Sequence record: NC_101837.1
Direction: 5' to 3' (one strand)
From: a phage
Length of the DNA: 64,000 bases
The position numbers and the translations under genes were made by a program. Below, in pieces: positions 3,758 through 31,427 of the stretch (positions are counted from its first letter, which is position 1; every line of letters begins with the position of its first letter). The notes below the pieces were generated by a model that saw only the letters and a program-made list of their open reading frames with translations, searched no databases and was not told where the DNA came from.

Positions 3758-4015
3758 TCAGTCCACCTCTTCTTCTCGTTGTAGTTCAAGATACCCGTAG
3801 GTCTGGATATCTTCAAAAGTGTGGAACTCCCCATCTGCCGCTAAGGCACGAACAACTTGGCACAAAACCTTATGAGGAACTTCATCCAGACCCAGATTCA
3901 GTGCAGGGAACACCTTATCTAAGTCAACAAAATAAACGAACTGTAGCTCACCAGCTTCAAAAGGTGTATCTTCAATAAACATCTTCTCGGCATTAGTCAA
4001 GATCTGAACTTTCAT
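3758..4015 (-). CDS. hypothetical protein
   Basis: 85-aa ORF in operon. Confidence 0.4.
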   Translation of the reverse strand: MKVQILTNAEKMFIEDTPFEAGELQFVYFVDLDKVFPALNLGLDEVPHKVLCQVVRALAADGEFHTFEDIQTYGYLELQREEEVD

Positions 4016-4392
4016 TATTCTACCTCCTCTTCTTTTTCTTCGACATTAGTTTCAGAGCTACCCCACTCTGGAGTTTCAACCTCGATAGTAAACTCACGCA
4101 CTACACGGTAATTGCCCATGAAGCGCTCCACTTCGTCAAGGTTTATGGGGAGGCCATTGGCAACCAGGTCTGCAGCACCCTCTTCTACCAGGTAGTCCAG
4201 ATTGGCTTCCAAAGCTTCAGGCTCAAACCCTGTCAATGCAATCAGATAACCTTTCCCTTCATCAGGGAGGACAATACAGCCCAACTGATTTTCTTTAAAA
4301 AGACAGTGACCATCATTATTGATTGGGTGTTCATTGCAGTAAATAGCTGCACGATAAGTAACTTTAGACATCGGTAAGGCCTCCTTAGGCAA
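4015..4392 (-). CDS. hypothetical protein
   Basis: 125-aa ORF, start overlaps upstream stop. Confidence 0.4.
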   Translation of the reverse strand: MPKEALPMSKVTYRAAIYCNEHPINNDGHCLFKENQLGCIVLPDEGKGYLIALTGFEPEALEANLDYLVEEGAADLVANGLPINLDEVERFMGNYRVVREFTIEVETPEWGSSETNVEEKEEEVE

Positions 4393-4663
4393 TTGTCATT
4401 TTACATTCTTGAAATTTTAACACAAGACGGTGATTGTGTCTAGTGTCTAAAAAGATTTTTTCAACCATCAGGCACACGGTATAACCGTCCATCTTGTTAA
4501 CAACAAAATCTCCAGGGTGAGGGAGGATGTCTCCAGGGTTGGGGAAACATAGTCCACTCAGAAAGGCATCGTCAGTGGTGGACTTAATAGATTTCCACAC
4601 ACTGTCTGCCTGAACATGTTCACCGACGTAATATACATTACCACATGCCTTCATCATAGTCAA
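4385..4663 (-). CDS. hypothetical protein
   Basis: 92-aa ORF, overlapping neighbours by a few nt. Confidence 0.4.
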   Translation of the reverse strand: MTMMKACGNVYYVGEHVQADSVWKSIKSTTDDAFLSGLCFPNPGDILPHPGDFVVNKMDGYTVCLMVEKIFLDTRHNHRLVLKFQECKMTIA

Positions 4664-5559
4664 ATCCCCGCATAAATTAAACTTGTATCAGTATACTTCT
4701 TTAATGGGTAAATATCCTGTCCATAGATGCAGTCATTAAACACCTCATCTACCCAAAGGCTACACTTATATCCCATCATTTCTAAAACACCCATCTCTTC
4801 TTCGGTAAACTTATCACCGCTCTTGCAAGATGTCAATACCTCATTCTGTACTCTTGCTACCTCGAAGCGGTTATTGGCAATATCGCTATTGGCGATCAAA
4901 TACTCACCTAAAGGGTGTGCGGCATTAAAGATGCACAGTGGGCGGTTGACGTAATAGTCTCCAGGTGTATAAAAATTATTGAGGTCTTTCACTAGAACAT
5001 TCTTATCAGTCACTTCATTTATAACATCATGCATATCGCACATCTTTATATGTTTGAGGATTCCATCCCCCATCACAAAATAAAAACTTGCTGAGGCACT
5101 TTCGGCATAGATCTTACTAGATCCGTTGTAGTTGTATTTTACTCGGATGCTAACGGGGGTTTTTCCTGTCGCGTTAGCCATCATCCAAAGAAATGGCAGC
5201 TCATACTTCTCCTCTGAGGAAACAAAAGGTGAGGTAGCCAGAGATCGAAAACCTCCAGAGAAGTTGAAAGTTACAGAACCGCTCCGGCGGTATGATACCG
5301 CGTATTCTACTTTTATATCGACGTACCCGTTGGAATAGGTGTGTCCTTCATTATCTAAATATGTCCACTTATCAGACCCAGATACCAATCTACGCTCAAT
5401 AACCTTCATCACTACAGGAATTAGTGGGTTGGTACAAACCGCTTTTGAAGTAGCTTTATCATCTAAAGCCTCGTAAATTGCAGAAAGGATGTCCCCAGCT
5501 GAAAGATTGGTTGTTATGTCCTGTTTCCACCGCGTACTAAAACTGTTAAGATTTGCCAT
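4660..5559 (-). CDS. hypothetical protein (first gene of minus-strand early operon)
   Basis: 299-aa ORF; AGGAG upstream of ATG; immediately downstream of a sigma70-like promoter. Confidence 0.45.
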   Translation of the reverse strand: MANLNSFSTRWKQDITTNLSAGDILSAIYEALDDKATSKAVCTNPLIPVVMKVIERRLVSGSDKWTYLDNEGHTYSNGYVDIKVEYAVSYRRSGSVTFNFSGGFRSLATSPFVSSEEKYELPFLWMMANATGKTPVSIRVKYNYNGSSKIYAESASASFYFVMGDGILKHIKMCDMHDVINEVTDKNVLVKDLNNFYTPGDYYVNRPLCIFNAAHPLGEYLIANSDIANNRFEVARVQNEVLTSCKSGDKFTEEEMGVLEMMGYKCSLWVDEVFNDCIYGQDIYPLKKYTDTSLIYAGI

Positions 5560-6712: not shown

Positions 6713-8173
6713 ATGGATAGCAGAAGTTCAGAAATCATTGCCTCACAGAAAGATGATGCCCTGAGAATGTTGCAGGCTGCACGTATGTATCTCCTTGAAA
6801 AGCTGCCGTTTTATGGCACACTGCTGTCAGGGTTGCAGTTCGTAGAAAACCACACATGGTGCTCCACCATGGCAACCGACCATAAACGCATTTATTACAG
6901 CCCTGAGTTCATTATGGGATTGGCTGATGAACGCAAGGCTATTCTTAAGGCTTCTCTAACTGACGAGCAGTTTGAGATGGCTGAAGTTTTCTATTCCCCA
7001 AAATCTGTGAAAGAGGTGGCCTTCCTTCTGTCACATGAGGTGGGGCATATTATCTGTGATCACCTGGTCCGTGGTAAAAGCTTTGAGCCGGAACTGTTCA
7101 ATATTGCTTGTGATCACGTTATCAACACAGGTCTTGTGGTTGACTTTAGCAAGCCTCCTTGTGTTTTCTTCCCGAAGGGGAAAAGCACTACGTTCGTGAA
7201 AGGCAAGCCTTTTGGCTTCTTAGCTAACTGCTACTGCGACATGAAGTTTCATGGATGGATTGCTGAGAACGTCTATGCAGTTCTTGATAAGCAAAGAGAT
7301 CAGAATAACGGTAAAAGTAAGAGCGGTAAAGGTGAGAACTCTCAAGGAGATAAGCGACAAACCGATGATCACATGAGTGGGAACGGTGGCACCAGTGATG
7401 ATCTTGGAAAGGCTATGGGGTATGATCAGCCACAACCTGTAATCAGCCAATCTGATAAAGATCAGGCCATGCAGGACTCTGGTGACATGCTTGAGGCAGC
7501 AATGCAAGCTTCCGGAGGTCGTTGCCCTGAGGCGGTTCGTGAGTTTGTCAAGAATAGAGGTAAGCCTGTAATCAATTATATAGACATCATCAAGCAGCGT
7601 ATGTTGTCTAAAAGAAAGGCCGAACTGACCTACAGAAAACCTGGTCGCCGATCTGGGTCTTTGACCAGCACAATGCGAAAAGTCGGAGCTATAAACAAGA
7701 ACCAGCACGTTATTGTTCCTGGTCGTAATCCGGAAAACACTATAGATATTGTGGTGGCTTTAGACGTTTCTGGCTCGATCTCTCAAAGAACTTTAAAGAA
7801 AATGTTCAATGAAATCACCGGATTGTGCAATCTGTATAAAGAATTTAAGGTTACAATGTTCTGTTGGTCAACTGAGGTTGGAGAGGTTAAAGTATACACT
7901 CGCGGCAACATAGACGAAATGATCAACTATGAGGTCCACTCAACATGGGGAACAACAGCTGCTTGCGTGTTCGAGTATCTGGATGCCAACATACCAAATG
8001 CAAAAGATGTCATCGTCCTGACCGACCTATACTTTGAGCATAACTTTGAACAAAAGGCTGTTGACAACAAGTGGAAAAAGTACGATACTTTATGGGTTCT
8101 AACCGAAGGGTATAATAAAAATTATATCCCTAGCTTTGGTAAAACTGTGGAATTAATCGAGTACGCTAAGTAA
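6713..8173 (+). CDS. von Willebrand factor A domain protein with N-terminal HExxH metallopeptidase-like domain (DUF2201/CobT-like; usual MoxR partner)
   Basis: HEVGH motif; MIDAS motif ALDVSGSIS in C-terminal half; ATG 6713 preceded by TGGAG; upstream ATG 6692 sits in loop of hairpin 6685-6699. Confidence 0.6.
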   Translation: MDSRSSEIIASQKDDALRMLQAARMYLLEKLPFYGTLLSGLQFVENHTWCSTMATDHKRIYYSPEFIMGLADERKAILKASLTDEQFEMAEVFYSPKSVKEVAFLLSHEVGHIICDHLVRGKSFEPELFNIACDHVINTGLVVDFSKPPCVFFPKGKSTTFVKGKPFGFLANCYCDMKFHGWIAENVYAVLDKQRDQNNGKSKSGKGENSQGDKRQTDDHMSGNGGTSDDLGKAMGYDQPQPVISQSDKDQAMQDSGDMLEAAMQASGGRCPEAVREFVKNRGKPVINYIDIIKQRMLSKRKAELTYRKPGRRSGSLTSTMRKVGAINKNQHVIVPGRNPENTIDIVVALDVSGSISQRTLKKMFNEITGLCNLYKEFKVTMFCWSTEVGEVKVYTRGNIDEMINYEVHSTWGTTAACVFEYLDANIPNAKDVIVLTDLYFEHNFEQKAVDNKWKKYDTLWVLTEGYNKNYIPSFGKTVELIEYAK

Positions 8174-8960: not shown

Positions 8961-9410
8961 GTGTTGAGCAAACGTGAATGCGACAGCATTAGCCTGAATT
9001 CTTATAAGAAACAATGGTTTGGGGTAGAAGTTTGCCGACTGCGGCTAGGCTCCTACCTGAACTTCGTTTATTATGAGAGCGACAGCCGTATCGTTTCTTA
9101 TGAAGTGTTCTACACTAAGAACACCTTCGAACTACGCCGTAAAGTGGATGGCGGGAGAACTACCACCCAGAATAATTGGGAAACTATCCTCCCTACAGAT
9201 GTTATAGGAAGTCCCCTGAATGTATCTGAAGATGAAAATCTTATGGTTCATGCTATGATGGGACTTGACAGCTTAGAGCTGGCGATCTATGATATGTCCA
9301 TCGAAGCAGTTAAGCTGGACTACATCGAAAACACTTTAGAGGAAGGTATCAAGAGGTTTCTCAGTGAGAAATTAAAAGACTACTTTCATAAGGAGCTATA
9401 CCTATTATGA
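8961..9410 (+). CDS. hypothetical protein
   Basis: 149-aa ORF, GTG start preceded by AAAGGAGAGAG. Confidence 0.4.
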   Translation: MLSKRECDSISLNSYKKQWFGVEVCRLRLGSYLNFVYYESDSRIVSYEVFYTKNTFELRRKVDGGRTTTQNNWETILPTDVIGSPLNVSEDENLMVHAMMGLDSLELAIYDMSIEAVKLDYIENTLEEGIKRFLSEKLKDYFHKELYLL

Positions 9411-9652
9411 AGACCCGTAAAGAACGTAACAAAATTTTACCTGGAGCTCTCGAACACCTGATGAAGTGCAGATCTATTTGGCACTCTGCCAAGGAAGGGC
9501 AGAAGGTGGTTGTGGTTAGTGACAATACCAACCCGTTTGGAGATTATACCACCATGATGGCCCCATATGTCCGTGATGGCGTTGTAGAAGTGGTCCCTTA
9601 CAACGGTCTGCATGAACGGCACTTTGAAAGCACTTTGTTAGTGGAGCTATAG
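9407..9652 (+). CDS. hypothetical protein
   Basis: 81-aa ORF overlapping upstream stop by 4 nt. Confidence 0.4.
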   Translation: MKTRKERNKILPGALEHLMKCRSIWHSAKEGQKVVVVSDNTNPFGDYTTMMAPYVRDGVVEVVPYNGLHERHFESTLLVEL

Positions 9653-9654
9653 TC

Positions 9655-10221
9655 ATGGCGGTCAATGTGGCTTACAACACAGGAAAGCTTGACAGAGACA
9701 TTGGGTGTCTTGTCCTTTCAGATACAGAAGAGTATTGGGGTTATGGGTTGCTGTCAGACCCACACCCGAGCAACCTTGTATCAACAGTGCTATACCGCTA
9801 CGACCCTGTGCCAACGGTACACGACAAAGACATTCACGACCTTCGGATCAAGTGTCTGGAAGATCTGCTGAACAATGGTTGCAACGATCTGCGGGTAGCC
9901 AAAGAGAAGCTTACAAACATTCACAAAGAGGAAGTGATGAGCACTCTCAGTAAGAGATCAGTGCACAAAAAGATGATGCTGAACTTTGCAATGGGTATCT
10001 ACATGGACGGGTATAAGGGAGGTGATCCGATTCTCAAGCTTCGCTGCCCAACACTGTGGGAAAGAGTGGTTGACAGTAAGGACGGTACTGCCCTGCTTGA
10101 GCTACACACTGCAGGTTGGATTTGGCGGTATGTAGACGGATACCCTCTGTGGGCATGTGGACCTGGGGAATTTGTTGACAGACCTAGCGCGGTGGTGGAC
10201 TTACTATTGCAGTTTGAATAA
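9655..10221 (+). CDS. hypothetical protein
   Basis: 188-aa ORF. Confidence 0.4.
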   Translation: MAVNVAYNTGKLDRDIGCLVLSDTEEYWGYGLLSDPHPSNLVSTVLYRYDPVPTVHDKDIHDLRIKCLEDLLNNGCNDLRVAKEKLTNIHKEEVMSTLSKRSVHKKMMLNFAMGIYMDGYKGGDPILKLRCPTLWERVVDSKDGTALLELHTAGWIWRYVDGYPLWACGPGEFVDRPSAVVDLLLQFE

Positions 10222-10276
10222 AAGTGAGATATAAGGTGTTCATGCACCTACCAACAATACAACAAGAGAGACTGAG

Positions 10277-10552
10277 ATGACGAAAGAAGAAGCTGACGTA
10301 TTAGACTTTGCACTGGAGGCTACGCAAGAGGCTCTGGTGTTAGCTTGGAAAATGAACCAGCGTGCTGCAGAATGCAACCGCCGAATCAATGAGATTCTTG
10401 GCATGTCTATGTATGATTTCACTATGCATGCCGGAGAGATTCCTGAATTAACTGCTGAGATGAATGATCTTGACGATAAAATTAATATTATTCTGAAGAC
10501 AGCAGAAACAACTCACCAAACCGCCCGTAAATTTATCAACGAGAAGGTGTGA
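10277..10552 (+). CDS. hypothetical protein
   Basis: 91-aa ORF. Confidence 0.4.
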   Translation: MTKEEADVLDFALEATQEALVLAWKMNQRAAECNRRINEILGMSMYDFTMHAGEIPELTAEMNDLDDKINIILKTAETTHQTARKFINEKV

Positions 10553-11028
10553 ATATGGACTATAGCTACTGCGGGGAAGAGGTCCCTTTTAACTACAGCA
10601 ATCTTACCACAAGCAATCCATATGAGACTCACCACGGCACGCACATCATTGCCATTGACTTTGATGGAACGTTTAATGCGAGCCCTTTCATCTTCTCCCG
10701 CCTGATCAGGGACCTGAAGAAGGAGGGGTGGACAGTATACCTTGTGACTTTCCGATTCATTACTCAAGACAATGTGGACATTGAGTATTGGCGCAAGGAG
10801 CTCGATGTTGGTGTGTTTTATACTGGCGGTGTTCAGAAGGCAGCCTACCTGGCGCAGTTTGATATCTACCCAGATATCTGGGTTGATGATTCTCCGGCAT
10901 GTATTCCGGCTAAAAATCAGTTAGAGTTTGCAATGAAGGAGATTGAGTACAAGTCTGAGGCTAAGCGGAACGGATGGCCCTTTATTATTGAAGATTACCC
11001 AGATCCTGAACCGGAGAAAGAGCCATGA
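10549..11028 (+). CDS. HAD-superfamily phosphatase-like protein
   Basis: motif I IIAIDFDGT, motif II VYLVT, motif IV IWVDDSP. Confidence 0.5.
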   Translation: MNMDYSYCGEEVPFNYSNLTTSNPYETHHGTHIIAIDFDGTFNASPFIFSRLIRDLKKEGWTVYLVTFRFITQDNVDIEYWRKELDVGVFYTGGVQKAAYLAQFDIYPDIWVDDSPACIPAKNQLEFAMKEIEYKSEAKRNGWPFIIEDYPDPEPEKEP

Positions 11029-11195
11029 GGCGAAGATATCATTACCTGATGTGGAAGTTATATCATGGTGCTGCTAAAGCTTACCGCACCGTGTTTGGTA
11101 ATGACAATCACTGCATTATGTTACACCTTACCGCCATTGAACATCACAATGAGTGGATTCGTGCAATCGTAATAGGTGACAAAGATTTTAAGTAA
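11025..11195 (+). CDS. small hypothetical protein (56 aa)
   Basis: not in ORF track (under 60 aa); ATG overlaps upstream TGA (ATGA); open frame MRRRYHYLMWKLYHG... to TAA 11193-11195. Confidence 0.3.
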   Translation: MRRRYHYLMWKLYHGAAKAYRTVFGNDNHCIMLHLTAIEHHNEWIRAIVIGDKDFK

Positions 11196-11225
11196 AGTAT
11201 TGCTTTCTAGATGGAGACTGATTAA

Positions 11226-11606
11226 ATGTGCAAGTGTAAATCCTATAATTGGAAAGTGAAAGGTGCCAAGCATCAAAATGTTATCGTTGATGTGCCTAAA
11301 AAGCTCCGTGACGGCAAAAAACGTGTGTGCCTTGATAAGTGCATGGCTAAGCCTATCATGAGTCTATGGGCGGCAGGATTGAAAACTATAAACTGCTGCT
11401 GTGGCCATAACAAAGATGTTCCAAGTATCATTATCCCAGAAGATGCAGACCCTAAAGCTTATGCCAAAATACTGACCCGCTACCCCAGCACCTTCCTGAT
11501 CGGAAAATGGTGTCACGATGAACTTCAATGGTGGGTAGCATACGGTAGTATAGGTACTGCTTTTGGCTTTCCAGCTCTGTCAGAGCGCTACGTCAAAGTG
11601 TCATAA
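11226..11606 (+). CDS. hypothetical Cys-rich protein
   Basis: 126-aa ORF; GGAG upstream; multiple Cys including CCCGH. Confidence 0.4.
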   Translation: MCKCKSYNWKVKGAKHQNVIVDVPKKLRDGKKRVCLDKCMAKPIMSLWAAGLKTINCCCGHNKDVPSIIIPEDADPKAYAKILTRYPSTFLIGKWCHDELQWWVAYGSIGTAFGFPALSERYVKVS

Positions 11607-11711
11607 TCGATTTTAAGGCCTCAAAAGAGGCCTGTGCCTTCAATAACTCCACCCTCTCTTGTGATTACACCCACCTTTCAAAAAACTTCCCCAAAACGCT
11701 TAAAAATGTTG

Positions 11712-11741
11712 TTGACAGCACACACCCCAGTTTGCTATTCT
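11712..11741 (+). promoter_or_regulatory. sigma70-like promoter (TTGACA-18-TATTCT)
   Basis: consensus -35 at 11712-11717, -10 at 11736-11741, upstream of gene at 11776. Confidence 0.35.
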
Positions 11742-11775
11742 CATTATCACAGATACAGAACGGAGTAACAAAAAA

Positions 11776-12105
11776 ATGGCACATGTGAATATTAAACTAC
11801 ATTATCATGGTAGAAAACCAAAATATCCAATGCATAAAGTATTTTGGGGATTGCATATCCAAGAAAAAGAAGGTATTGGTTACTGGTTTTGTGACCACGA
11901 TAGACAATGGCATACCCATGAAGAAGTGTGCACTATGATGGAGCAGGGTATTAAATTTAATTTCTCAAACTATGATCATGGTGTTAATTGCATTCGAAAA
12001 TTGAAACGATTTCTTAGAAAGAATCCTGAACTTAAAGGGCTTACATTCTTTATGTCTCATAACTACATGGGGTATAGCGCTACTGTAACTGCAAGGATTA
12101 AGTAA
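11776..12105 (+). CDS. hypothetical protein
   Basis: 109-aa ORF. Confidence 0.4.
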   Translation: MAHVNIKLHYHGRKPKYPMHKVFWGLHIQEKEGIGYWFCDHDRQWHTHEEVCTMMEQGIKFNFSNYDHGVNCIRKLKRFLRKNPELKGLTFFMSHNYMGYSATVTARIK

Positions 12106-12106
12106 T

Positions 12107-12325
12107 ATGAGCAAAGTAAAATTTGTTAAATTTAAAAATCCTAATGGAATAACAGCCCTTATGATGGGTGTACACTTTACACCGGGCAAAGAGTATGAGG
12201 CAGATGTATACAATGGGATAGATGGTAAAGTTGGGATAGGTGTGTGGACAAACCGTGGAGAAAGATACTTTATCAAGGATATAGATGCTCACTGGGGTAT
12301 TTGGGAAGTTGTTGGAGATCTGTGA
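12107..12325 (+). CDS. hypothetical protein
   Basis: 72-aa ORF. Confidence 0.35.
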   Translation: MSKVKFVKFKNPNGITALMMGVHFTPGKEYEADVYNGIDGKVGIGVWTNRGERYFIKDIDAHWGIWEVVGDL

Positions 12326-12394
12326 TAATGAAATGAAATACTGTTTCTTCGGCAATATGTAATATAGATTGGTTAAATATGGAGACTGATAGAG

Positions 12395-12595
12395 ATGGCT
12401 GATTTTTGTAAAGACTGTTCTGAAGAGTTGTTTGGTCGTGACTGCGGAGATCTGAAAGGATTGATCACTGAGGATCAGTGGAAGGAAGGCTATGCAGCAC
12501 CTGTTATTTGTGAAGGTTGTGGCTATACCTATGTTGACCATAAAGGTAAGCGCGTCAAGCCGTCTGAAGATGGGTCGTGTTGGGAATATTACTAA
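12395..12595 (+). CDS. small zinc-ribbon-like protein (two CxxC pairs)
   Basis: 66 aa, CKDC...CEGC; GGAG upstream. Confidence 0.4.
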   Translation: MADFCKDCSEELFGRDCGDLKGLITEDQWKEGYAAPVICEGCGYTYVDHKGKRVKPSEDGSCWEYY

Positions 12596-12602
12596 TTATA
12601 AA

Positions 12603-12633
12603 AAGAAAGGGGCCGTCTGGCCCCTTTTTATTT
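12603..12633. terminator. bidirectional rho-independent terminator between convergent transcription units
   Basis: stem GGGGCC/GGCCCC 12609-12624 flanked by A-tract on one side and TTTTTATTT on the other. Confidence 0.55.
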
Positions 12634-12641
12634 GCCTCCTG

Positions 12642-15600
12642 TTAACTAGGGAAGTTTGTATAAGCTTCGAGATGGTATTGCTGGTTACCAGGTAGCATAA
12701 CACCTATGCTTGCAACACCTAATGTTCTACCACCAGGGTTCCACTGAAACTTAAATCCAATCCAACCCGAGCTTCTGGCTGCATCAATGTTGTCACTGTA
12801 CCCAAAAGTGGCTAGACCATCAACACCTGCTCCGAAAAGCAGTTGTATCTGGTTCCTTGGTAGGCCAATAATTTCAGGTATGTAAGCACCAAAAAATGTA
12901 GGGTTGGTGGTTGTGGTCGGATTGTTCATGACCGGACCGGTAAAGACCCTCATATTGGACGTTCCTGCAGGTCTAGGGTAAGCCCCGTCAAGAGGATTTC
13001 CTTCCCAAATAAACCACTGAGGTGCCATCTGTCTGACAGTAAACGATGTTGAAGACGTTTTGCGGCCTGCATCATCTCTAACTACAAACTTTATGGTGAC
13101 ATTCCCAGTAGCTTTAAATGTTACCAGCCCTGTGGTGGCATCCACTGTTGCAATGTTGGTATTACTACTTTCCCAAGTCTTTCTAATCCCGGATACGTTG
13201 GAAGGGGTGATAGAAGGTTCCTGCATCTGCAGTTTACCGCCCACAATCCCTATGCCGTTGCCCGGATTATACAGCACACCGACCTCGTCTATAATGTTCC
13301 CTGCTTTGAGACTATACTTCCTTGAGAAGTTGTAAGTTCCGTTATAAGTGTGTGTCCCTGAGAATGTGACATCTGCCTTCCCGTAAGAGATGCAAACCAA
13401 CGCATACTTCCTGTCAGGCAACGTTTCTCCAGTCTCTGGGTGAGTTTTACCTACCTGGAACACACTCGGGTCAGTAGAGTCGTGACTATCACTAACGGAG
13501 CTTGGACCGCCCATCAACTGTGACAAACAATTCCTTACCCATGTCCAGTTATTATCGCTGGAGAAGTCCACAGTCAAATCAAACACAACCCACTCATTTG
13601 GCTTCCACACAGGTGTTGCAATGGACTTGCCTACACCGCCTCCTTGGAGTGTTGCCGACTGTTCGGTGATCAGTGCCGCATAGGCCAGAGTTCCTAAACT
13701 CAGAGTCTGGCTTGCTGTCCTCACTACCTTAGAATCAGCATCTGTGAAGTTGTTGATGATTTGGAATGTGCCATAAGTGTTTTTACAGGTAATTCTGGCG
13801 TTCAGCGTGTCAATCTTCCTCACATCTGCCATAGCAGTGTTAGACACAGAGAAGTCAGAAGCTTTAGCTGAGTTTGCCGCAACAGCAGGATCAACGTTAA
13901 GAGTTGCGTTGAACTGACAGGCAGGGGTAACCAGCAGCTTGTTATCACCTATTTGCTTCCATGAAATACTTTGGACAGGTAGATTCCATTTAATACCTGA
14001 GAAAACTTTAGCAACCCTTGGCCCCAGAGCTCCAGTTCTGTTGTCTTTACAGCACATAGACATGGTGATTGTTGACGGAGTAGCCTGTCCGAACAATTGC
14101 TGTGCTTTTGCAGAGGACATGGTGTAGAAATTGTCCTTAACAAACTCATCAGCGGCTAAAGATCCGTCAGCCCTCCACCATTGAACCTGATACCCTGTTT
14201 TGTCCCAACCACCGACCTGCTTCAGGTCTTCCCAGGAGATTTCTAGATCCCCAGTGGTAGGGTTGATTGCAGCAGCTCCTGGTGTTCCAGAGGACCATAA
14301 TGGGATATCGAACCACGCTGGTTTAGCAGACTGCACTGCACTAGGACCTATTGCAGCAGCAAGTTGCTGGCCCATCAATACACGAGCATCTTTCACCAGA
14401 CCCCACTCGATCATGGACCCGGAGTAACCTTCTTTCTTGTAGGCTGAGGATCCGTTCAAATGGATGAGTCGGCTTGTGCCAAAGTTATATGCTCCACCAC
14501 CGTTGTCGTCTGCAAAATTGTATATAACCCTATCTCTGATATCTTTCCATGCTCTACCGCCAATCTCGTAGTCATGGTCATAACATCTTTGCAATGTTGT
14601 CCAGCAAATGATCGCCATCCTTCTGCCGTCACTAAAGCCAAAGGCCTGATCGTTAAGCTCTCTCCACAAGTAGCAGTTAGTGGTCCACATAGCTCTGTGA
14701 ATGTTGAACCAATTTATAGACCTGGCTGCATTGTTGTAGGCGGTGCCTTCTAGCGTAGGCCACACTGCATTAACCAGCATGTCCTCTGTCCCTGCGTCTA
14801 TCAGGAATCCTCTCACTTTCTTACCCATTCCTACCCTATCCTTGGCAATCCATGAGCCGAACAATTTCAGTTTAGGACCGATTACGGCATCCTCTGGATG
14901 CTCAAGAGAGACATACTTCAAGTATACTGTAGGATCACCGTAGGTGCCATCACAAACAGCTTTGTGCATGTTTTCACCAAGGTCCAGACGGATACCTGTG
15001 AGAGTTTTGGTATCATCTGTGAACTTATCTGTCAAATCAAACTCGTACCACCACCACCCGGCTCCAAGTAAAACTTTCTTACAGCGCTTAGAGTCTGTGT
15101 CGGAGATTCTTTTATCTCCCGCATATGGTGAGTCTGCAAACTGGTAGTGCAGAGCAACTTCAAAAGGATGTGTGGATGTTCCGTTTTCTGCAAGAACTTG
15201 CTTTCCGATCAGATCGCATTTAATAATCATCACGACACGTCTGTACCCATTGGCAACTGGAACGTCGAACGGATACCTTGCACCATCCATATTCGCATGC
15301 AAAGCTGCGAAATTTATGTATGGGTCAACAGCGTTACCTAAAGTTTCAGGCCCTGGGATCATCTTGTACTTCTTGACCTGTCCCATGATATAGTCGCTGC
15401 CGTAGGTTGCAGCCTCGAAGCAAGAACCGCTGTCAGGCAGTTCAGCAGGCCCCCAAAAGTATGCCCCGTAACAATTATAGAACCACTTGTTAGGGTCATA
15501 GTTATTCTTGAAGGTCTGAACCTCGTTTGCCTGTTTTGTCAAGAAAACCTGAGTATCTGTAAAGATTGCAGGATTTACCCTTGCCTGACGCGGAGGGTAA

Positions 15601-20072: not shown

Positions 20073-20339
20073 TTAAGCTTTTTGCTCTTCGTTTTTAACG
20101 TGGTCAGGGTGCTGGCAACCCCACCGGAGCGAGATGAATTTGCTAATAAGCTGGGGGCAAGCTACTGAAGGCGCGTATATCCACGCATACCATTCAGGAA
20201 GCGTATCATTATACCCCATATGAATAAACACCCCAGTCATCACCGCCATGCCTATGTTCGACCATAGCTTAGTTTGGGACACTTTCGTAGGGTCATCAGA
20301 TGCCGCAACCAGTCCCCATAAAAACTGAGTTAGTTTCAT
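20073..20339 (-). CDS. small protein with hydrophobic segments (possible membrane protein)
   Basis: 88-aa ORF between fibre genes. Confidence 0.3.
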   Translation of the reverse strand: MKLTQFLWGLVAASDDPTKVSQTKLWSNIGMAVMTGVFIHMGYNDTLPEWYAWIYAPSVACPQLISKFISLRWGCQHPDHVKNEEQKA

Positions 20340-20350: not shown

Positions 20351-21397
20351 TTAAGCATAAGATATAGTGATCCATTGACCATTTACAAGTTTTTGGATAG
20401 CACCTGTCCAGTAATCACCTTGATAAGGGTGTTTATAAGCGTAGTTACCAGAGCACATCACATGTCCAGGGTAGACTCTTGACTCTCTGTAGGTGGTTTT
20501 GAAACGGTTTGCTATCCTTACATCATCAACCCCTCTGCTGGGCATAGGGATAGTAAGGTTACCACTACTGTCTGCGCCGTTACCATTTACCCTGCGGACC
20601 ACGTTTCTTCCACCAACTGTTGCATATTGACCCCTGACTGTTTCATCGTTACAATCAACTCTTCCACCTATTTGAGCGCTTCCGCAGGATTGTTGTCCGT
20701 TAACAGTGGCTCTTGGTATCGTGACCGCATTGGCATTTGCAGAGGAACTTTTTGCATCGTTGCATTCAAGATTTCCTTGGATGGCCAGTCTTGCACGGTT
20801 GGCAGTTATAGCATTGAGCTTCATAGCCGAAAACACAGGCTGCCCACCAGAAGGTTGAAATCTCCAACGGAACCCGTCTATTTGGTGAGAAGGATCATCA
20901 AGGTCTGTGCCGTCAGCACCACCGATGTTGTCCATAATCCAGAAATCCATCGTCGTCTTGTCTGGAGTTATGGTGGTATATATTGCCGCATTGTCTGTTG
21001 ACGCAGATGCAAACTCGATTCTTTGAAGACCTAAAGTTTGAGTCTGAGTCATTATGTCTCCAGACTTGTCAACATACAGATCGTCCATTTCTTCAGGCGA
21101 GTATACATTGAGAACTTGACGTGCAGCAGCTTTGTCTGGAACGTCTGCTAGATTATTAGTGACCCTTAAGAATCTATTATCCCATCCCGGGACAACATCT
21201 TCTGTTAAATGCTTTAACCACGCAGAAAGCATGTGAAGTTCAAAGTTAACAACTTCACATGCCACTCTTTGTGTCATATCCCAACCTTTCAATCTCTCTT
21301 CTTTTTTTGGTTGAGACTTATTCAACTCTCCCGTATTTTCAAGCACAACATCCTGATTGGCCCAAATATCAAGAGGGATAACTGGTTTAGTCATCAC
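20351..21397 (-). CDS. tail fibre protein, paralogue B
   Basis: 348 aa; N- and C-termini closely similar to 22409..23449 (PLDIWANQD.../...LVNGQWITISYA). Confidence 0.5.
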   Translation of the reverse strand: MMTKPVIPLDIWANQDVVLENTGELNKSQPKKEERLKGWDMTQRVACEVVNFELHMLSAWLKHLTEDVVPGWDNRFLRVTNNLADVPDKAAARQVLNVYSPEEMDDLYVDKSGDIMTQTQTLGLQRIEFASASTDNAAIYTTITPDKTTMDFWIMDNIGGADGTDLDDPSHQIDGFRWRFQPSGGQPVFSAMKLNAITANRARLAIQGNLECNDAKSSSANANAVTIPRATVNGQQSCGSAQIGGRVDCNDETVRGQYATVGGRNVVRRVNGNGADSSGNLTIPMPSRGVDDVRIANRFKTTYRESRVYPGHVMCSGNYAYKHPYQGDYWTGAIQKLVNGQWITISYA

Positions 21398-21483
21398 GTT
21401 CTCCTGAGAAAATTCCTTAGGACTATTTTAACACTTTAGGGAACAAAATGCAAGAACGGAGTCCTTTCCGTTCTGACCTTTGT

Positions 21484-21798
21484 TTACCTTTTACTATGCT
21501 CTACGAGCATGTGCAAAATCTTTTGTACATCAGCTCGGATACCGGAGACATCTGTCCTGACATCCTGCTTAAGGTCGTTAATATCGGCCTCTAGCTTACT
21601 TAACCGGGTCTCGATAACGGAATCAAGTTTATCTTTTGTAACCATACTGTTTTTCACTAAGATGAGGTCTTTCTCCAGTTCATCCAACCTCTTGGAAATG
21701 CCTTTCCATTTGGTGTGCCACTGGTTGAAAGCCCATACACAGATCGGGACAACGGTACCCATGCAGATACCGTACAATGCCGCCAAATCCAACTCCAC
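21484..21798 (-). CDS. small membrane-anchored coiled-coil protein
   Basis: 104 aa; N-terminal hydrophobic segment then heptad-like charged region. Confidence 0.3.
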   Translation of the reverse strand: MELDLAALYGICMGTVVPICVWAFNQWHTKWKGISKRLDELEKDLILVKNSMVTKDKLDSVIETRLSKLEADINDLKQDVRTDVSGIRADVQKILHMLVEHSKR

Positions 21799-21809
21799 AA
21801 CACCTCCTC

Positions 21810-22394
21810 TTAGAGGGTAGGTCGCTCCGGGAAGAAAATGTCAGGGGCTTTAGATGTATCTATTTCAAGAAGTTTTACCCTGTACATTTTCAAATCTCTG
21901 ATGTTACGTTTCTGGTCATCAGTAAGATCATATTCAAGGTCAATCATGTCTTGATAGGCACCAATTCTAGCAGTAGCCCAAGCAAGTTCTGTCTCTATGA
22001 CACCCTCTGCCTGTTGAACAAAGAATTCATTGTCTGTGACAAATTCATCACCAACTAAACGCAAAGCGTCGTGGTGAAGCATAATGTTTTCTGGTACCTC
22101 TTCTTTTTTGGCGATAACCACACGAAGACCTGGAGCAGGCCATAAGGCATCAGGTTCTTCTGTAGATGTCTTAAGAATTCCCTTCTCGTCAACAAGTAGG
22201 AAGATACACCCCGGATTTTCTTGTCGTAATGTTCGTGACTGCACATACCAATCGCCATCATCATTACGTAAAAAATACCCAGTGTATGCTGTGTAATCCT
22301 CAACCTCTTGAGGGGTCAGCTCCTTGGTTTCCTTGTTGGTGCGGTATTCGCCAGATCCCGGTTGGTAAAGTTTAAACTCTTGAAGTATTTTCAT
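21810..22394 (-). CDS. tail fibre assembly protein (lambda Tfa-like)
   Basis: 194 aa; C-terminal ...QDMIDLEYDL...YRVKLLEIDTSKAPDIFFP matches the lambda Tfa C-terminal signature (...YRVLLNRVDTSTAPDIEWP) as recalled. Confidence 0.65.
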   Translation of the reverse strand: MKILQEFKLYQPGSGEYRTNKETKELTPQEVEDYTAYTGYFLRNDDGDWYVQSRTLRQENPGCIFLLVDEKGILKTSTEEPDALWPAPGLRVVIAKKEEVPENIMLHHDALRLVGDEFVTDNEFFVQQAEGVIETELAWATARIGAYQDMIDLEYDLTDDQKRNIRDLKMYRVKLLEIDTSKAPDIFFPERPTL

Positions 22395-22408
22395 GCTAGT
22401 CCTCCGAT

Positions 22409-23449
22409 CTATGCATAATTAACAGTGATCCATTGACCATTTACAAGTTTTTGTAAAGGTCCTGCCCAGTAGGTTGAACCACGCATCTCTTTTTTGTCAC
22501 CGAAATGCCAGCCTGTGACAACGTAGCCGTTGCGGATTGGAGATTCAGAAACTCCGTCCACAAGTCTTGCACCGATTCTGATGTCTTGCACACCTGTCTG
22601 CGGGATAGTGATCGTTACATCACCGTTACCGTTAGCCGTCACTCCGTTCACAGAGCGAACCACATTTCTGTTACCTACAACACAGTGCTGGCTTCTTACA
22701 ACCATACTGTCACAACTTGCACCACCATTAACATATACTGACCCAGCCGTCAACTGACTGGCCACATTACAGTTGGTGAATGTTGCGGTATTGCTGATAG
22801 TAAGGTTATTGCACCTCATGTTATCGACAACTTCAACATTGCCTACCACTTTCAACAGCGCACGGTTAGCCGTGATCGCGTTAAGGTACATCAAAGTGAA
22901 CTCCGGATTAATATCCGGCTGAGTTGGCTGGAATCTCCAACGAAACGCATCTATTGTAGATGTGCCACCATCATCAAACGCCCCAGTATTATCACTTAAC
23001 CCAAAGTCGAGAGTTGTCTTATCTGGGCCAATAGTTGTCTCTATCCAAGCCTTATCTGTCTCGGCAGCTTTAAAGTTGATACGTTGCAAACCCAATGGGC
23101 CTGTCATTGTATCACCTGTAACTTTTACATACCTGGCGTCTGCCTCTTCCTTAGTAATAATCCCAAGGTTTCTACGGGCAACAGGAATGTTCAAAAGATC
23201 ACTCAAGTTATTATCACGTACCAGATAACGGCCTTCTTGAGCGGGGATCTGCTCGTCAGCAATGTATTTTGCCCAAGTTCCGAGCATATTGAAAATATAG
23301 TTAAGTTCTTCACATGAGGGCTTTTGACCAAGATCCCAACCTTTTCTCCACAAATCATCAATCGGGCGTAGCCTGTTCTGTCTGTGGGTGTTAGGCAGAA
23401 CCTGATCCTCCTCTGCCCAAATCTCTAATGGAAAACTAGGTTTTGACAT
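22409..23449 (-). CDS. tail fibre protein, paralogue A
   Basis: 346 aa; conserved termini shared with 20351..21397; followed by the Tfa-like gene. Confidence 0.5.
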   Translation of the reverse strand: MSKPSFPLEIWAEEDQVLPNTHRQNRLRPIDDLWRKGWDLGQKPSCEELNYIFNMLGTWAKYIADEQIPAQEGRYLVRDNNLSDLLNIPVARRNLGIITKEEADARYVKVTGDTMTGPLGLQRINFKAAETDKAWIETTIGPDKTTLDFGLSDNTGAFDDGGTSTIDAFRWRFQPTQPDINPEFTLMYLNAITANRALLKVVGNVEVVDNMRCNNLTISNTATFTNCNVASQLTAGSVYVNGGASCDSMVVRSQHCVVGNRNVVRSVNGVTANGNGDVTITIPQTGVQDIRIGARLVDGVSESPIRNGYVVTGWHFGDKKEMRGSTYWAGPLQKLVNGQWITVNYA

Positions 23450-27827: not shown

Positions 27828-30800
27828 TTAGTCGTGAGACTCGTTCCAAGGTCCCTGGAAGCTAGAGTTTGAACGACTTACTATCACAGTAGGACAGGAG
27901 ATTGTGACACCTGTCACGCTCGACGTTGACCACGGTGTGTAAATCTCGATAACAATGTCTATAGTTTGTTCACCCAGACCTGTTATCCCTACCGCACACA
28001 TGCCGTTGTTGTCGTTAAAATACTTCTTGCCAGCAAGGATCTGATGACCAGCTATCCATGCATTCAGTTGGGAGCTGGCAAGAGTACCATTCAGTTTAAA
28101 GAAGAATGTTACGTTCTTACCCTGACCTGAAACGTTATCTACGTATCTCCACCTCCAACGGCAAACCCTTTGCTGGGAGTTATATACTGGAGCACAATCT
28201 CCGTAAGTCCTGTGTGCAACAATCGCACCTTCGAACTGGTTAGCACGGATAACAGAAGCTTCTACACGACCACGGAAGGTACCTCCGGTTGCATCTATGG
28301 TGCCTCTAAAGCTACCATTATTGGCATAAACATCACCACGGAAGGTACCACTGGTGGCGTTAACTGCCCCTGTGAAGTTACCAGAACTGGCGTTGATGTT
28401 GCCTTTCACCCACACATCCATAAATTGGGCGTGCCCGTTCTTGTTAATGTACCAACCGTATTTATGGTACCCGTTGCCATCGTAGTTGTTTGACGAAATT
28501 TCTTGTGCGATCTTGGCAGAGGAGATCGTGCCATTCTCTATAAAAGCGTCTTTCAAGAACGCTTGGTTGTTCTTGATTGCGAAAGCAAGGGTTGCTGTTC
28601 CATTTCCAGGGTTGTATACCGCAAAATTGTTTGCACTAACCATGAAGTAGGATTGAACTTGTCCTCCAGACCCCTCCATGCCCAGCTGGATACCTGCAAC
28701 ATACTTATTCCCTGCAGAGTCTACCTGAATCTTAGCTCCCCACTGAGCATCTATTTTACCCTCAAGTGTTGTTACAGCTTTAGAGGTATTAGATACTGTA
28801 GCCCTGAGCTCATCAATATTACCCATTTCGTCAACAATTTCTTGTTTTGCAGAGGTAAGTTCTTGACGGATCGCTGTGGCTGTATTATTAACAAGATCAA
28901 CTGTTGTACTATTAGTTTCTTGAATAGATGCTTGCAGATTGGCAACCTCTTTCTGCACATCATCTTCCAGCTTGGTGATCTTCCCTGTAGCTGCCACCAG
29001 ATCCTGCTTAATAGCTTCCGTTGTCTTATTTAGCAGATCGGTTGTTGCCTTGTTGGTTTCTTGAATAGAGGAGTTAAGTTTGCTCTCAGTGTTCTTCAAC
29101 TCTTCCCGCAGAGTACCTTGAGTTGCAGTTATTTGCTCACTCAATGCTTGAGTTTTACGATTAACAAGATCAACGGTTGATCTATTTGTTGTCTCGATTA
29201 GTGACCCAAGCCTACCAGACTCTGCTGCAAGTTTATCGTCAAAGGATTGCTGAGCTGCTACCAGCTTACTGTTAAGGGCAGAAATTTCTCCATTAACCCC
29301 TGTAAATTTTTCTGTCGTCTCTCTGACAACACCCTCTATTGTATCCCCAAGCTCTTCAAAAATGCTAGTAACACGGTCATTGACTGCACCAACATTTTTA
29401 TCCATTTCCTTGACTGCATTATCGAGATTGGCGGTAAGCTCTTTATAAGTCTCTGTCTTTTTGAACTCAGCATCAATCTGTGGCATAAGATCTTCTATAG
29501 ATGTGTAACAGTGGGCTGCACACTCCACAAAAGCAGATGAACCAAAAGCATTTGTTGTCCTGATATACCAATAATAAATCTTATCGTTCTGCAGACCTTC
29601 AGATGTCCAAGTTGAACCAACACCCATACGAGTGGCTTTTGAAGTAACGGTTGCATCACTGGTATCTGGCAATCTTGTCATCCCAGATGTCCAAAAGTCA
29701 TATTGGGTGCTTACACTGGCCAAGTCTCTGCTGTGCGGGATCAGGGTAATAGCAAAGTATCCCTGTTTAACTTCTACAGAAACCGGAGCCTCAGGTGCCT
29801 GAATGTTAAACTCACAGTATGCTTCTGGAGATACACCACCTTTATAAGATGTTGCAACAACAGTGGCTGTGTAGGAACCTTTAGTCAGACCTTCAACACG
29901 GACAAACTGCTCAACTGTCTGCGCTGTCCAGACAATCTCTCCGTTTTTCCTGACCTGCACAATGTTTTGAGCATAAGTCCCAACGTTGTCCCAAGCCAAA
30001 ACACCGTGAGTTACTTCTCCAGCTTGGAGAACGGAATATCTGAAGTTTTGCGGTTGAGCTACACCAGATGGAGATATCGGAATATCTACATCGCCAGAAT
30101 CCGGAAGTTGCCCTGTGGCATCATTCCACTCTTTAGCATCTTGACGAAGTTTTACCTTGACACCCCCCTTTTTGGTAAACTCCCATTCAAGAACTCTCAT
30201 TTCTTGGCCCACTATACCAATACTTGGGAGGTCCATTGTAACGTAACGACCAGGTTTAAATTTGAAACCTCGCATATTGCAGGTGACTTCAATAATCCTG
30301 CCAGCTCTGGCACGTCTTAGGAAGATTGCAGAAACACGCTGAGCTTGATAAGGGCTGGTAACAAAGCGATAATCTATATCGATTATCTTTCTTTCTCCAT
30401 CCTTCTCTACCCACTCTGGGACAAACACTGATGGAAAATCTGTTTCAGAATACCCTTTGGTCGGACTAGTGAATCTGCCAGTTATTGTGTTGGATCTTTT
30501 GTCAAATGAGGCTTCCGGATAGATCTTGACCTCACCACAGACACAATCCTCACTCAGTGTCATTGTTGCCGGGCCATAGTATGCACCAACCAACAAACCA
30601 TACTTACCAGCTACATAACTAAGATCTGCACCGCAAGCTTTCAGCATTTCTGCCATAATACTTGCTGGGGCCTCATCCATGTCAAACTCACCGTTAATGG
30701 TGTAACGGCGCTCACTGGTTCCGTCTGCGTTTTTTACCGCCTCGTCGCATATGTTGGCAGCCTCCTTGAAGGACTCCCAGTTGATGGTTTCGTCAGGACA

Positions 30801-31427
30801 TTTAAGGTACGTTCTTAAATAGTCTAGGATCACCAAGGCAGCGTTATTGGTATACACCTCTTTACTGATACGAGGATCATAGCATTTTTTACCAACCTTG
30901 ACGAGTGTAACGTTTGGCAACCCAAAAGGAAACTTGTCAGGGTCAAACCTGAAGCTGGCACGTAGCCAACTGATCCCTCTACCTATCATGTCAGGTGACC
31001 ATGATGGGCAGTGTGTGCCCATGAAAGGATCAGATGTTTTTCTGTCGTTATGTAGCTCCCACGATACCAAATCCCCATACGAGGAAATAGGATTACCGTC
31101 GATAAGTATATCTTCTACACCTTCCAGAGGGTGATTGGCAAGAACAATAGCACAGTGGAGAGTTCTGTCTCTATCCTGCTCCAAAAACGCAAGCAATCCG
31201 GATGTGCGTGTCTTCCCATACACTACAGAGCAAGGTGCAGCAGAAGATCTGAGAAGCTTTTGTCTATCTTGCTGACTTCTGTAAGATTTGTTGCCCTCAA
31301 AAATCTTATCCAGAGTTCTGGTGGTAACAGTGTTCAGGCTGTCAGCCAGAGCTGCCTTGGATGCGTTCCAGTCATAACTTGAAGATCTTGCAGAAGCAAC
31401 GATGTTATCAATCATTGCAATTGGCAT
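27828..31427 (-). CDS. large tail/host-specificity-like protein (1199 aa) with central coiled-coil repeats
   Basis: N-terminal ~400 aa globular, long heptad-like Thr/Asn/Leu-rich segment, C-terminal Gly/Asn-rich region. Confidence 0.4.
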   Translation of the reverse strand: MPIAMIDNIVASARSSSYDWNASKAALADSLNTVTTRTLDKIFEGNKSYRSQQDRQKLLRSSAAPCSVVYGKTRTSGLLAFLEQDRDRTLHCAIVLANHPLEGVEDILIDGNPISSYGDLVSWELHNDRKTSDPFMGTHCPSWSPDMIGRGISWLRASFRFDPDKFPFGLPNVTLVKVGKKCYDPRISKEVYTNNAALVILDYLRTYLKCPDETINWESFKEAANICDEAVKNADGTSERRYTINGEFDMDEAPASIMAEMLKACGADLSYVAGKYGLLVGAYYGPATMTLSEDCVCGEVKIYPEASFDKRSNTITGRFTSPTKGYSETDFPSVFVPEWVEKDGERKIIDIDYRFVTSPYQAQRVSAIFLRRARAGRIIEVTCNMRGFKFKPGRYVTMDLPSIGIVGQEMRVLEWEFTKKGGVKVKLRQDAKEWNDATGQLPDSGDVDIPISPSGVAQPQNFRYSVLQAGEVTHGVLAWDNVGTYAQNIVQVRKNGEIVWTAQTVEQFVRVEGLTKGSYTATVVATSYKGGVSPEAYCEFNIQAPEAPVSVEVKQGYFAITLIPHSRDLASVSTQYDFWTSGMTRLPDTSDATVTSKATRMGVGSTWTSEGLQNDKIYYWYIRTTNAFGSSAFVECAAHCYTSIEDLMPQIDAEFKKTETYKELTANLDNAVKEMDKNVGAVNDRVTSIFEELGDTIEGVVRETTEKFTGVNGEISALNSKLVAAQQSFDDKLAAESGRLGSLIETTNRSTVDLVNRKTQALSEQITATQGTLREELKNTESKLNSSIQETNKATTDLLNKTTEAIKQDLVAATGKITKLEDDVQKEVANLQASIQETNSTTVDLVNNTATAIRQELTSAKQEIVDEMGNIDELRATVSNTSKAVTTLEGKIDAQWGAKIQVDSAGNKYVAGIQLGMEGSGGQVQSYFMVSANNFAVYNPGNGTATLAFAIKNNQAFLKDAFIENGTISSAKIAQEISSNNYDGNGYHKYGWYINKNGHAQFMDVWVKGNINASSGNFTGAVNATSGTFRGDVYANNGSFRGTIDATGGTFRGRVEASVIRANQFEGAIVAHRTYGDCAPVYNSQQRVCRWRWRYVDNVSGQGKNVTFFFKLNGTLASSQLNAWIAGHQILAGKKYFNDNNGMCAVGITGLGEQTIDIVIEIYTPWSTSSVTGVTISCPTVIVSRSNSSFQGPWNESHD

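Follow-up and report, generated by a model that had tools for sequence, protein, structure and literature searches.

Why does a phage keep two complete genes for short tail fibers in close neighborhood, if related phages encode a single one? This question is raised by positions 20351–23449 of a 64,000-nucleotide stretch of phage DNA (sequence record NC_101837.1), which is called the window in the following. The window belongs to an rV5-like Vequintavirus, i.e., a phage of Escherichia coli, and the locus encodes two paralogous short tail fibers, here termed A and B, together with a single assembly chaperone of the Tfa/gpU-type, gp32. Paralog A (22409..23449, minus strand, 346 amino acids) is rV5 gp33 with three amino acid differences, paralog B (20351..21394, minus strand, 347 amino acids, ATG start) is rV5 gp30 with two amino acid differences, and both match PHROG 4465, ‘tail fiber protein’ (E=2.4e-171 for A and E=4.1e-166 for B). 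Judged from the sequences, we consider it rather probable that A retains the ancestral target and that B recognizes a different variant of the core lipopolysaccharide (LPS). A keeps the ancestral head and thereby would keep the ancestral target. A dual specificity is plausible because A and B agree in only 25% of the residues of the head loop, amino acids 296–328, and A has retained the motif found in the fibers of the phages phi92, Av-05 and R7.

The existence of the fiber pair and the idea of two LPS chemotypes are known since 2013 and do not constitute a new object. Kropinski et al. (2013; PMC3606486) already published the paralogy of gp30 and gp33 with 42–43% identity, suggested two LPS chemotypes and described gp30 and the similar-sized gp33 as resembling T4 gp12 based on HHpred similarity. 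Maffei et al. (2021; PMC8594841) described the pair as homologous to the one locus that phi92-like phages have and, in the end, to GpS/GpU of Mu, and reported ‘no considerable allelic variation’ in the short tail fibers; in the corresponding BASEL records A and B both carry the annotation "short tail fiber protein", and the gene in between is a "tail fiber chaperone". Together with the assignment of phi92 gp147, these studies place both the observation and its interpretation in the literature. What is added here is incremental and concerns the ancestry of the copies, a replaced gene for a 157-amino acid protein, a putative conversion tract at the 3′ ends, a sister lineage with homogenized heads and a probable separate late transcription unit.

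The locus is highly conserved. A region of 8.5 kb around it shows 98.4–99.3% DNA identity to rV5, FFH2, PMBT16, HdK5 and about 110 other Vequintavirus genomes, and in tblastn searches the identity in sampled Vequintavirus records is at least 98.6% for A and at least 96% for B. All genes are encoded on one strand in the order gp34, short tail fiber A, Tfa, the 104-amino acid protein, short tail fiber B, the 88-amino acid protein and gp28, which is the next fiber. The same order is annotated in MaxBurger, rV5_ev168, rV5 and FV3, and the spacing and order of the fiber genes are identical to rV5.

An ancestral fiber and an old duplicate

The original prediction, made from the letters of the window, described two tandem paralogous tail fiber genes, the first of which is served by a Tfa-type chaperone, and this description is supported. 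Both open reading frames are located on the minus strand where they had been placed, and the N- and C-terminal peptides quoted for them are correct. A and B align over their full length (BLASTP: 43% identity, 154/356, with 58% positives and E=1e-94; global alignment: 46% identity), showing that the similarity extends beyond stretches of low complexity. The pattern of conserved termini and divergent centers was only partly borne out. The last 18 amino acids are 72% identical and identity indeed drops in amino acids 206–255, but the best-conserved block is the central one comprising amino acids 117–205 (59%, rising to 70% in amino acids 121–150), while the N-terminal 116 residues reach only 39–40% (40% for amino acids 1–70 and 39% for amino acids 71–116). 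Amino acids 206–284 are 36% identical with 19–23% around amino acids 211–255, and the most divergent parts are amino acids 206–255 and the head loop. It was further proposed that a receptor-binding module or cassette had been duplicated. Instead, the duplicated unit is the whole fiber gene including the domain for baseplate attachment, and swapped centers are not present.

Which of the two copies is the older one can be read from relatives with a single fiber. In a tblastn search of 50,697 phage records, two loci per genome were found in Vequintavirus and one in all remaining groups, among them Avunavirus, Seunavirus, Mydovirus-like Klebsiella phages as well as phi92-like, phAPEC8-like and phiTE-like phages. 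The closest single-copy orthologs of A, with 47–51% identity, are those of the Avunavirus Av-05 and of the Seunavirus group (GAP31 and the PVP-SE1-like R7). A is 46% identical to B, and B is about equidistant to each of the single-copy orthologs (42–44%). As in these relatives, A directly follows the wedge genes and precedes Tfa. The relatives show the order wedge, (gp34), short tail fiber, Tfa, a 104-amino acid protein, a 157-amino acid protein, an 88-amino acid protein and a fiber of 580–600 amino acids, and there is no second short fiber. B and an intergenic region of 86 nucleotides (window 20351–21483) occupy the exact slot of the gene for the 157-amino acid polytopic membrane protein, which is located at 6949–7422 in the Av-05 sequence (L003), at 6961–7434 in GAP31 (L005) and at 6997–7470 in R7 (L004). 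This multi-pass membrane protein has no homolog in any part of the 64-kb window, and it could not be assigned to a family. By similarity and gene order A is the ancestral ortholog of phi92 gp147 and of the single fiber of Av-05 and Seunavirus, and B is an ancient, derived and faster-evolving duplicate.

As a side observation, the record of R7 (PQ002170.1, Salmonella phage vB_Sen_SG_WM_RUS_R7) carries Demerecviridae in its taxonomy line, and its fiber locus is syntenic and 73% identical to that of the Seunavirus GAP31 (Vequintavirinae).

The age of the duplication was estimated from two further, more distant lineages with both paralogs, i.e., L009/L010 (identity to the window of 87% for A and of 78% for B) and L011 (72% for A and 52% for B). 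In a neighbor-joining tree of the full-length proteins the A clade is recovered with 100% and the B clade with 85.5% bootstrap support, and with the N-terminal 116 residues the values are 96% and 90%, respectively. The duplication predates the three lineages because both the A and the B clade contain all of them. Relative to the split from the Av-05/Seunavirus group, the duplication may be either older or younger (bootstrap value of 59%). The proportion of synonymous differences (pS) between A and B is 0.85, i.e., synonymous sites are saturated, and the same codon is used at 37% of the conserved residues. The recent diversification of host range that had been suggested for the locus is not supported by these data: the synonymous sites are saturated, the split is common to three lineages, and within the genus the genes are near-invariant with a ratio of nonsynonymous to synonymous substitution rates (omega) of at most 0.06. 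A tandem duplication of fiber genes is thus not always a sign of a recent change in host range, which calls for caution.

Two other origins of the second copy were considered and rejected. Independent duplications in each lineage might be suspected as the two L011 paralogs are 54% identical to each other, more than L011 B is to B of the window; the clean A and B clades of the full-length and N-terminal trees speak against it, and it is solely in the C-terminal head that the two are more similar than expected. Horizontal acquisition of B was rejected since no donor was found, neither by tblastn in the phage records, where nothing outside the genus exceeds 39% identity, nor in a search of 5.8 billion proteins, which returned eight clusters, all of which comprise two-paralog phages, A-type proteins or Seunavirus-like fibers. 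It was this protein search that brought up the lineages L009/L010 and L011.

Domain architecture and comparison to characterized fibers

Neither A nor B matches a family in Pfam or NCBIfam. A and B were used singly in phmmer searches against all sequences of the PDB, and a profile of six family members was searched against the same sequences. With its residues 1–108, A matches the short tail fiber of the Pectobacterium phage phiTE (9CUY, E=1.3e-19) and with residues 286–343 it matches residues 440–501 of Mu gpS (5YVQ, E=1.9e-6). For B the match to the phiTE short tail fiber comprises residues 2–84 (9CUY chain c, E=1.3e-9); in the phmmer search of the PDB B alone shows no direct match to Mu gpS, to which it is linked via the profile and via A. 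The family profile detects both, the phiTE fiber at positions 1–134 (E=7.5e-26) and Mu gpS at positions 279–343 (E=4.2e-7), and an N-terminal match to PHROG 12846 supports a joint of the phiTE-type. For phiTE it was shown that residues 3–92 form a globular joint that binds the wedge protein 1 (PMC11972413). According to these matches, A and B each consist of a phiTE-related N-domain of the wedge-binding type, a beta-rich middle part and a Mu gpS-like C-terminal head. An AlphaFold2 model of the A monomer, which was built from an alignment of eight sequences, reached a mean predicted local distance difference test score of 33.8 and a predicted template modeling score of 0.21 and was unusable.

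The extreme C-terminus carries the motif P-x-Q-(K/Y)-x-(V/I)-N-G-x-W-x-T throughout the family. The same tip motif is found on a much longer fiber of an unrelated 42-kb viral contig (L019, IMGVR_UViG_2609460249_000004), in which an open reading frame of 598 amino acids ending near 11240 terminates with RPIQKLVNGQWITVGQL.

Upstream of this tip lies the head loop. In A, it is 55–61% identical to those of Av-05, R7 and phi92, and with Av-05, R7 and the phi92-like gp147 it shares the motif ...G-H/Y-V-x-T-G-W-x-F-G-x-K-K-E-x-R-G..., while B has ...G-H-V-M-C-S-G-N-Y-A-Y-K-H-P-Y-Q-G... at this place. The fiber of the Cronobacter phage GAP31 is 73% identical to that of R7 overall, yet it is divergent in the head loop. 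The loop would therefore fit a host-specific region contacting the receptor, and it provides the best sequence argument for A and B having different ligands.

Another single-copy homolog is phi92 gp147. It was assigned in 2026 to the "fiber III" seen by cryo-electron microscopy, a downward-pointing trimer on the wedge, for which a role in irreversible adsorption and as the trigger of contraction was proposed (PMC13450770). Its N-domain is homologous to those of A (39% identity) and B (36%), and its C-terminal head is 56% identical to A and 33% to B. Overall, gp147 is nearer to A than to B (36% vs. 26%), and the same holds for the head loop (61% vs. 34%). In phi92-like phages, tblastn with A matches two pieces, an N-terminal and a C-terminal one, with 47–48% identity and E about 1e-14. 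The wedge genes immediately precede the gene, and behind it lie those of a Tfa chaperone (gp148) and of a small protein with transmembrane segment and coiled coil, as observed for A. The orthologous coding sequence of PD06 is labeled Phi92_gp147. The differences are that gp147 is present as a single copy, has a length of 327 amino acids and contains a central shaft unrelated in sequence (7–21% identity).

The phiTE short tail fiber (PDB 9CUY/9MJN, PMC11972413) shares the N-terminal 110–135 residues, and the C-terminal motif of the family is weakly matched as well. It differs from A and B as it comprises 554 amino acids, the remainder of which forms a long coiled coil and Ig-like domains, and as phiTE is flagellotropic and encodes one copy.

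For phage Mu, gpS and gpU/TfaMu (PDB 5YVQ, 9KI1), the head is homologous, with V-x-D-x-R-L-G ... P-x-Q-K-x-x-N-G-x-W as aligning residues, and a gene of the Tfa family is located downstream. Mu gpS is longer, 504 amino acids, and its N-terminus and shaft cannot be aligned with A and B. Mu uses two alternative fiber tips, S/S′ with U/U′, which are exchanged by inversion of the G segment, so that one is present at a time. The locus described here differs as it contains two whole fiber genes in direct orientation and one chaperone, and presumably both fibers are made in each infection.

T4 gp12 is a functional analog of A and B, being a short trimeric fiber bound to the baseplate which attaches irreversibly to the LPS core. 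T4 has a single gp12 gene and uses gp57A as chaperone. When all sequences of the PDB were searched by phmmer and with the profile, no chain of T4 gp12 was detected at E<=1, and the HHpred match described by Kropinski et al. was not reproduced with these tools.

Probable exchange of 3′ sequence between the copies

The two genes share an identical tract of 30 nucleotides on the minus strand encoding QKLVNGQWIT (A: 22424..22453; B: 20366..20395), which is an exact match with only these two occurrences in the window. Resampling of synonymous codons under the local codon usage yields a probability of about 1e-4 for such a run. In L009 the pair shows a run of 29 nucleotides at the same place (about 4943–4971 and 7008–7036; P=5e-4). 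The L009 run differs from the window by three synonymous changes (CTG, GTC, CAG), which are present in both copies, and both copies of L010 have GTC and CAG. Orthologs of the window and of the L009-type lineages are saturated at synonymous sites (pS about 0.81). This is a signature of gene conversion because the tract is identical within a genome and different between genomes, and it looks as if A and B occasionally exchange 3′ sequence by short and recurrent conversion events.

An RNA or DNA element as sole cause of the identity is disfavored as the tract differs synonymously between lineages yet matches within genomes, and a third or a complementary copy is not present in the window. An additional constraint at the nucleotide level is possible since the core GTAAATGGTCAATGGATCAC is kept also in B genes of the L011-type.

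The L011 lineage (L011, P0003, P0005 and the IMG/VR sequences L014, L016 and L021) represents a more distant lineage of 135-kb phages and shows another state. Here, the 30-nucleotide tract differs between the copies, and the whole head of B is A-like. The L011 paralogs (3913–4953 and 6001–7065 of L011) show 84–94% amino acid identity in windows of the last 60 residues and 30–45% in the N-terminal halves, and 75% DNA identity over 269 nucleotides. The proportion of nonsynonymous differences (pN) amounts to 0.099 in the head compared to 0.383 in the N-terminal half, and in a tree of the C-terminal halves the L011 B group is nested within the A clade (94.5%). Evidently, the head of one copy was copied onto the other in this lineage, which would leave these phages with two fibers carrying essentially the same head.

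A probable separate late transcription of the second fiber

The only sizeable intergenic gap of the fiber cluster is located upstream of B (21398–21483). It contains a terminator-like hairpin on the minus strand (21453..21474), which was identified by a terminator scan, is followed by TTGCATTTT and has a predicted RNA folding energy of −14.8 kcal/mol (z=−3.35). The hairpin is kept in FV3, L009 and L011 with compensatory changes in four out of seven pairs, and in the records of HdK5 and Murica a ‘terminator’ feature lies under the matches covering this place. It probably closes a transcription unit reaching from gp36 to gp31.

Downstream of the hairpin follows a late-promoter-like element (21410..21446, minus strand) with the core TGTTAAAATA at 21424–21433. 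It matches P030, which was listed as a putative late promoter of rV5 (Kropinski et al., Table S4; PMC3606486). In the window, TGKTAAAATA is present at five positions, always on the minus strand, compared to an expectation of 0.5, with the further occurrences at 27755, 33026, 47179 and 50700; one of these boxes is found upstream of the gp36 homolog and agrees with P036 as published. In FV3, L009 and L011 the TAAAATA part does not vary, and both the promoter box and the ribosome-binding site of B are conserved. The start of B had been set to 21397, which did not hold: 21397 is the position of a GTG, and translation of the 347 amino acids starts from the ATG at 21394. This ATG is also found in FV3, L009 and L011, its AGGAG has the more favorable spacing, and every annotated record begins B there. 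From the hairpin and the promoter box, A probably shares its transcript with the genes of the wedge, gp34, the chaperone and gp31, while B is probably the first gene of another late unit, which continues with gp29 and gp28.

This arrangement bears on the possibility that one fiber is built from both proteins, i.e., a mixed heterotrimer of A and B. Such a fiber would explain the presence of one chaperone, the shared tip that conversion keeps identical and the conserved center. Indeed, only one Tfa gene is present for two fiber genes, the extreme C-termini are 72% identical and contain the 30-nucleotide tract of identical DNA, and the region most similar between A and B is the central one. However, the probable location of the two genes in different transcription units argues against co-assembly, the solved or modeled homologs Mu gpS, phiTE short tail fiber and phi92 gp147 are homotrimers, as the single-copy relatives necessarily have to be, and with head loops and N-domains of 25–40% identity a threefold packing would be awkward. 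We consider a mixed fiber as very improbable.

Possible reasons for keeping two fibers

By analogy to the characterized systems, each fiber would form a homotrimer, the folding of which may begin at the C-terminal tip that both proteins have in common (QKLVNGQWIT-x-x-YA) and be assisted by gp32. For Mu it is known that TfaMu binds the distal fiber tip and stays on the virion (summarized in PMC9608196). As in phi92 and phiTE, both trimers would sit at the wedge in the periphery of the baseplate and point downward. They would bind irreversibly to the LPS core, resulting in a rearrangement of the wedge, opening of the baseplate and contraction of the sheath. For LL12 and the Vequintavirinae of the BASEL collection the terminal receptor was located at the first glucose in the outer core of LPS (PMC8594841). 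With its different head loop B might bind another variant of the core LPS, which would equip the phage with two built-in options for the terminal receptor.

Several points weigh against this reading. The trimeric state, the site of attachment and the use of one chaperone for both fibers are inferred from homology. In the literature, no experimental dissection of the two fibers and no assignment of a receptor to either of them was found. The mass-spectrometry table of rV5, which lists 19 filtered, abundant loci, does not contain loci of 346, 347 or 194 amino acids (PMC3606486, Additional file 5). In contrast to this table, the main text of the same study states that gp30, gp32 and gp33 were detected by total phage proteomics (PMC3606486), and no proteome of another Vequintavirus virion settling the presence of the fibers was found in the literature. 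Moreover, all Vequintavirinae of the BASEL collection share the same dependence on LPS and their paralogs are invariant (PMC8594841), so that there is no phenotypic hint of two specificities. Finally, the L011 phages keep both paralogs with heads that are 84–94% identical, and as a consequence dual specificity cannot be the sole reason for the existence of the pair.

The gap in the mass-spectrometry table could also be taken to mean that B is a decaying duplicate or a non-structural protein and does not act as a functional fiber of the virion. That B lacks a dedicated chaperone gene and evolves faster than A would be in line with this. Comparing the window with FV3, the synonymous divergence (dS) is 0.30 for both genes, whereas the nonsynonymous divergence (dN) amounts to 0.005 in A, corresponding to an omega of 0.016, and to 0.018 in B, corresponding to an omega of 0.06. 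At equal dS, the dN of B therefore exceeds that of A 3.6-fold, and deeper comparisons agree with B evolving 3–4 times faster. However, an omega of 0.06 at this dS speaks against this, and more than 110 Vequintavirus records contain an undamaged open reading frame of B, with 96–100% identity in each of those sampled and more than 90% in all, as well as in two distant lineages. Furthermore, its promoter box and ribosome-binding site are conserved, and A is likewise absent from the 19-protein table. Both genes are under strong purifying selection and hence functional, and we regard the loss of function of B as extremely improbable.

More serious is the possibility of a positional or structural subfunctionalization, in which A and B occupy two sites or fulfill two roles at the baseplate by their diverged N-domains, while one head could stand in for the other and both may recognize a single sugar of the LPS core. 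What separates A from B stably and irrespective of the lineage is indeed N-terminal: amino acids 1–70 are only 40% identical, and the clades formed by amino acids 1–116 are recovered in all lineages (bootstrap 90% for B and 96% for A). The homogenized heads of the L011 phages (pN 0.099 vs. 0.383 in the N-terminal half), in which both genes persist, point in the same direction, as do the one LPS-core requirement of all tested Vequintavirinae and the placement of B in a late unit of its own with gp29 and gp28. On the other hand, the head loops of B in Vequintavirus and L009 are very different from those of A (25%) and are under purifying selection, which is unexpected if the heads are equivalent. 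Moreover, phi92 and phiTE show one site for a short fiber per wedge and a second site is not known. We regard a division of labor by position as unlikely. A related and doubtful, though not negligible, view combines these observations with the conversion tract: the pair would represent two structurally distinct fiber positions, defined by the N-domains and the separate late units, with heads exchangeable by conversion seeded at the 3′ tip, and would not be primarily a device for two receptors.

The recognition of two core-LPS variants stays the reading that we favor, and the question why two copies are kept can now be put more sharply, as A is a conserved, ancestral fiber of the fiber III type, B is old, probably separately transcribed and faster evolving, and a sister lineage has two fibers with the same heads. 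If the heads are exchangeable, intragenomic conversion would provide a built-in route to reset or to double the receptor specificity. The question is of relevance as the fiber making the irreversible contact to the cell decides on host range and on the routes to resistance, and as few myoviruses of E. coli are isolated as commonly as rV5-like phages, which are candidates for therapy and biocontrol.

Neighboring genes and further observations

The neighbors of the fibers are as originally predicted, i.e., a Tfa/Caudo_TAP chaperone and a 104-amino acid transmembrane coiled-coil protein after A and an 88-amino acid membrane protein after B. The chaperone of the lambda Tfa/Mu gpU-type (21810..22394, minus strand, 194 amino acids, rV5 gp32) is located directly downstream of A. 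Its residues 121–192 match Caudo_TAP (PF02413, E=8.5e-12, 45.8 bits vs. a cutoff of 22.1), and it belongs to PHROG 136 (E=2.4e-36) and is homologous to the chaperones of Av-05 and PD06 (E about 1e-21); phmmer against the PDB returned spurious matches only. It is the sole Tfa-type gene of the cluster, and no chaperone gene adjoins B.

The 104-amino acid protein (21484..21798, minus strand, rV5 gp31) combines an N-terminal transmembrane segment with a coiled coil, for which the coiled-coil matches in Pfam are all sub-threshold. It matches PHROG 5345 of unknown function (E=1.1e-48) and is described as ‘membrane protein, 1 TMD’, i.e., with one transmembrane domain, in Table S3 of the rV5 study (PMC3606486). 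Its Av-05 homolog is 32% identical (E=4.6e-17), and it follows the chaperone also in the single-copy relatives. The 88-amino acid protein (20073..20339, minus strand, rV5 gp29) matches PHROG 1322, ‘membrane protein’ (E=1.1e-32), and has no match in Pfam and NCBIfam. Its Av-05 homolog is 52% identical (E=3e-27), and since it is kept in single-copy relatives it is not a B-specific partner. These two small membrane proteins are kept among the tail fiber genes up to Seunavirus and, for the 104-amino acid type only, the phi92-like phages. A holin- or spanin-like role in lysis or a role in assembly was considered for these two proteins and for the 157-amino acid protein of Av-05 and received no support, as Pfam, NCBIfam and PHROGs gave no functional assignment.

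About 20 unannotated records of ‘Campylobacter phages’ with Campylobacter jejuni as host, including MG065635, MG065654, MG065666, MG065655, MG065661, MG065677 and MG065690, are 98–99% identical to rV5-like phages of E. coli at the locus. They may be mislabeled, represent a contaminant or make an unexpected host claim.

Further downstream, the otherwise near-identical contigs L009 and L010 differ beyond the gp28 homolog (9124–13044). L010 has one gp27-like gene of 1876 amino acids and L009 has genes of 475, 183 and 1209 amino acids, suggesting a replacement or rearrangement of the largest lateral fiber gene. The homolog of the large tail protein gp37 (window 27828–31427) comprises 1199 amino acids compared to 1279 amino acids in rV5 and MaxBurger (L001 18829–22668) and represents a length allele; large fiber and tail genes such as the gp37 type were described as variable by Maffei et al. 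(PMC8594841).

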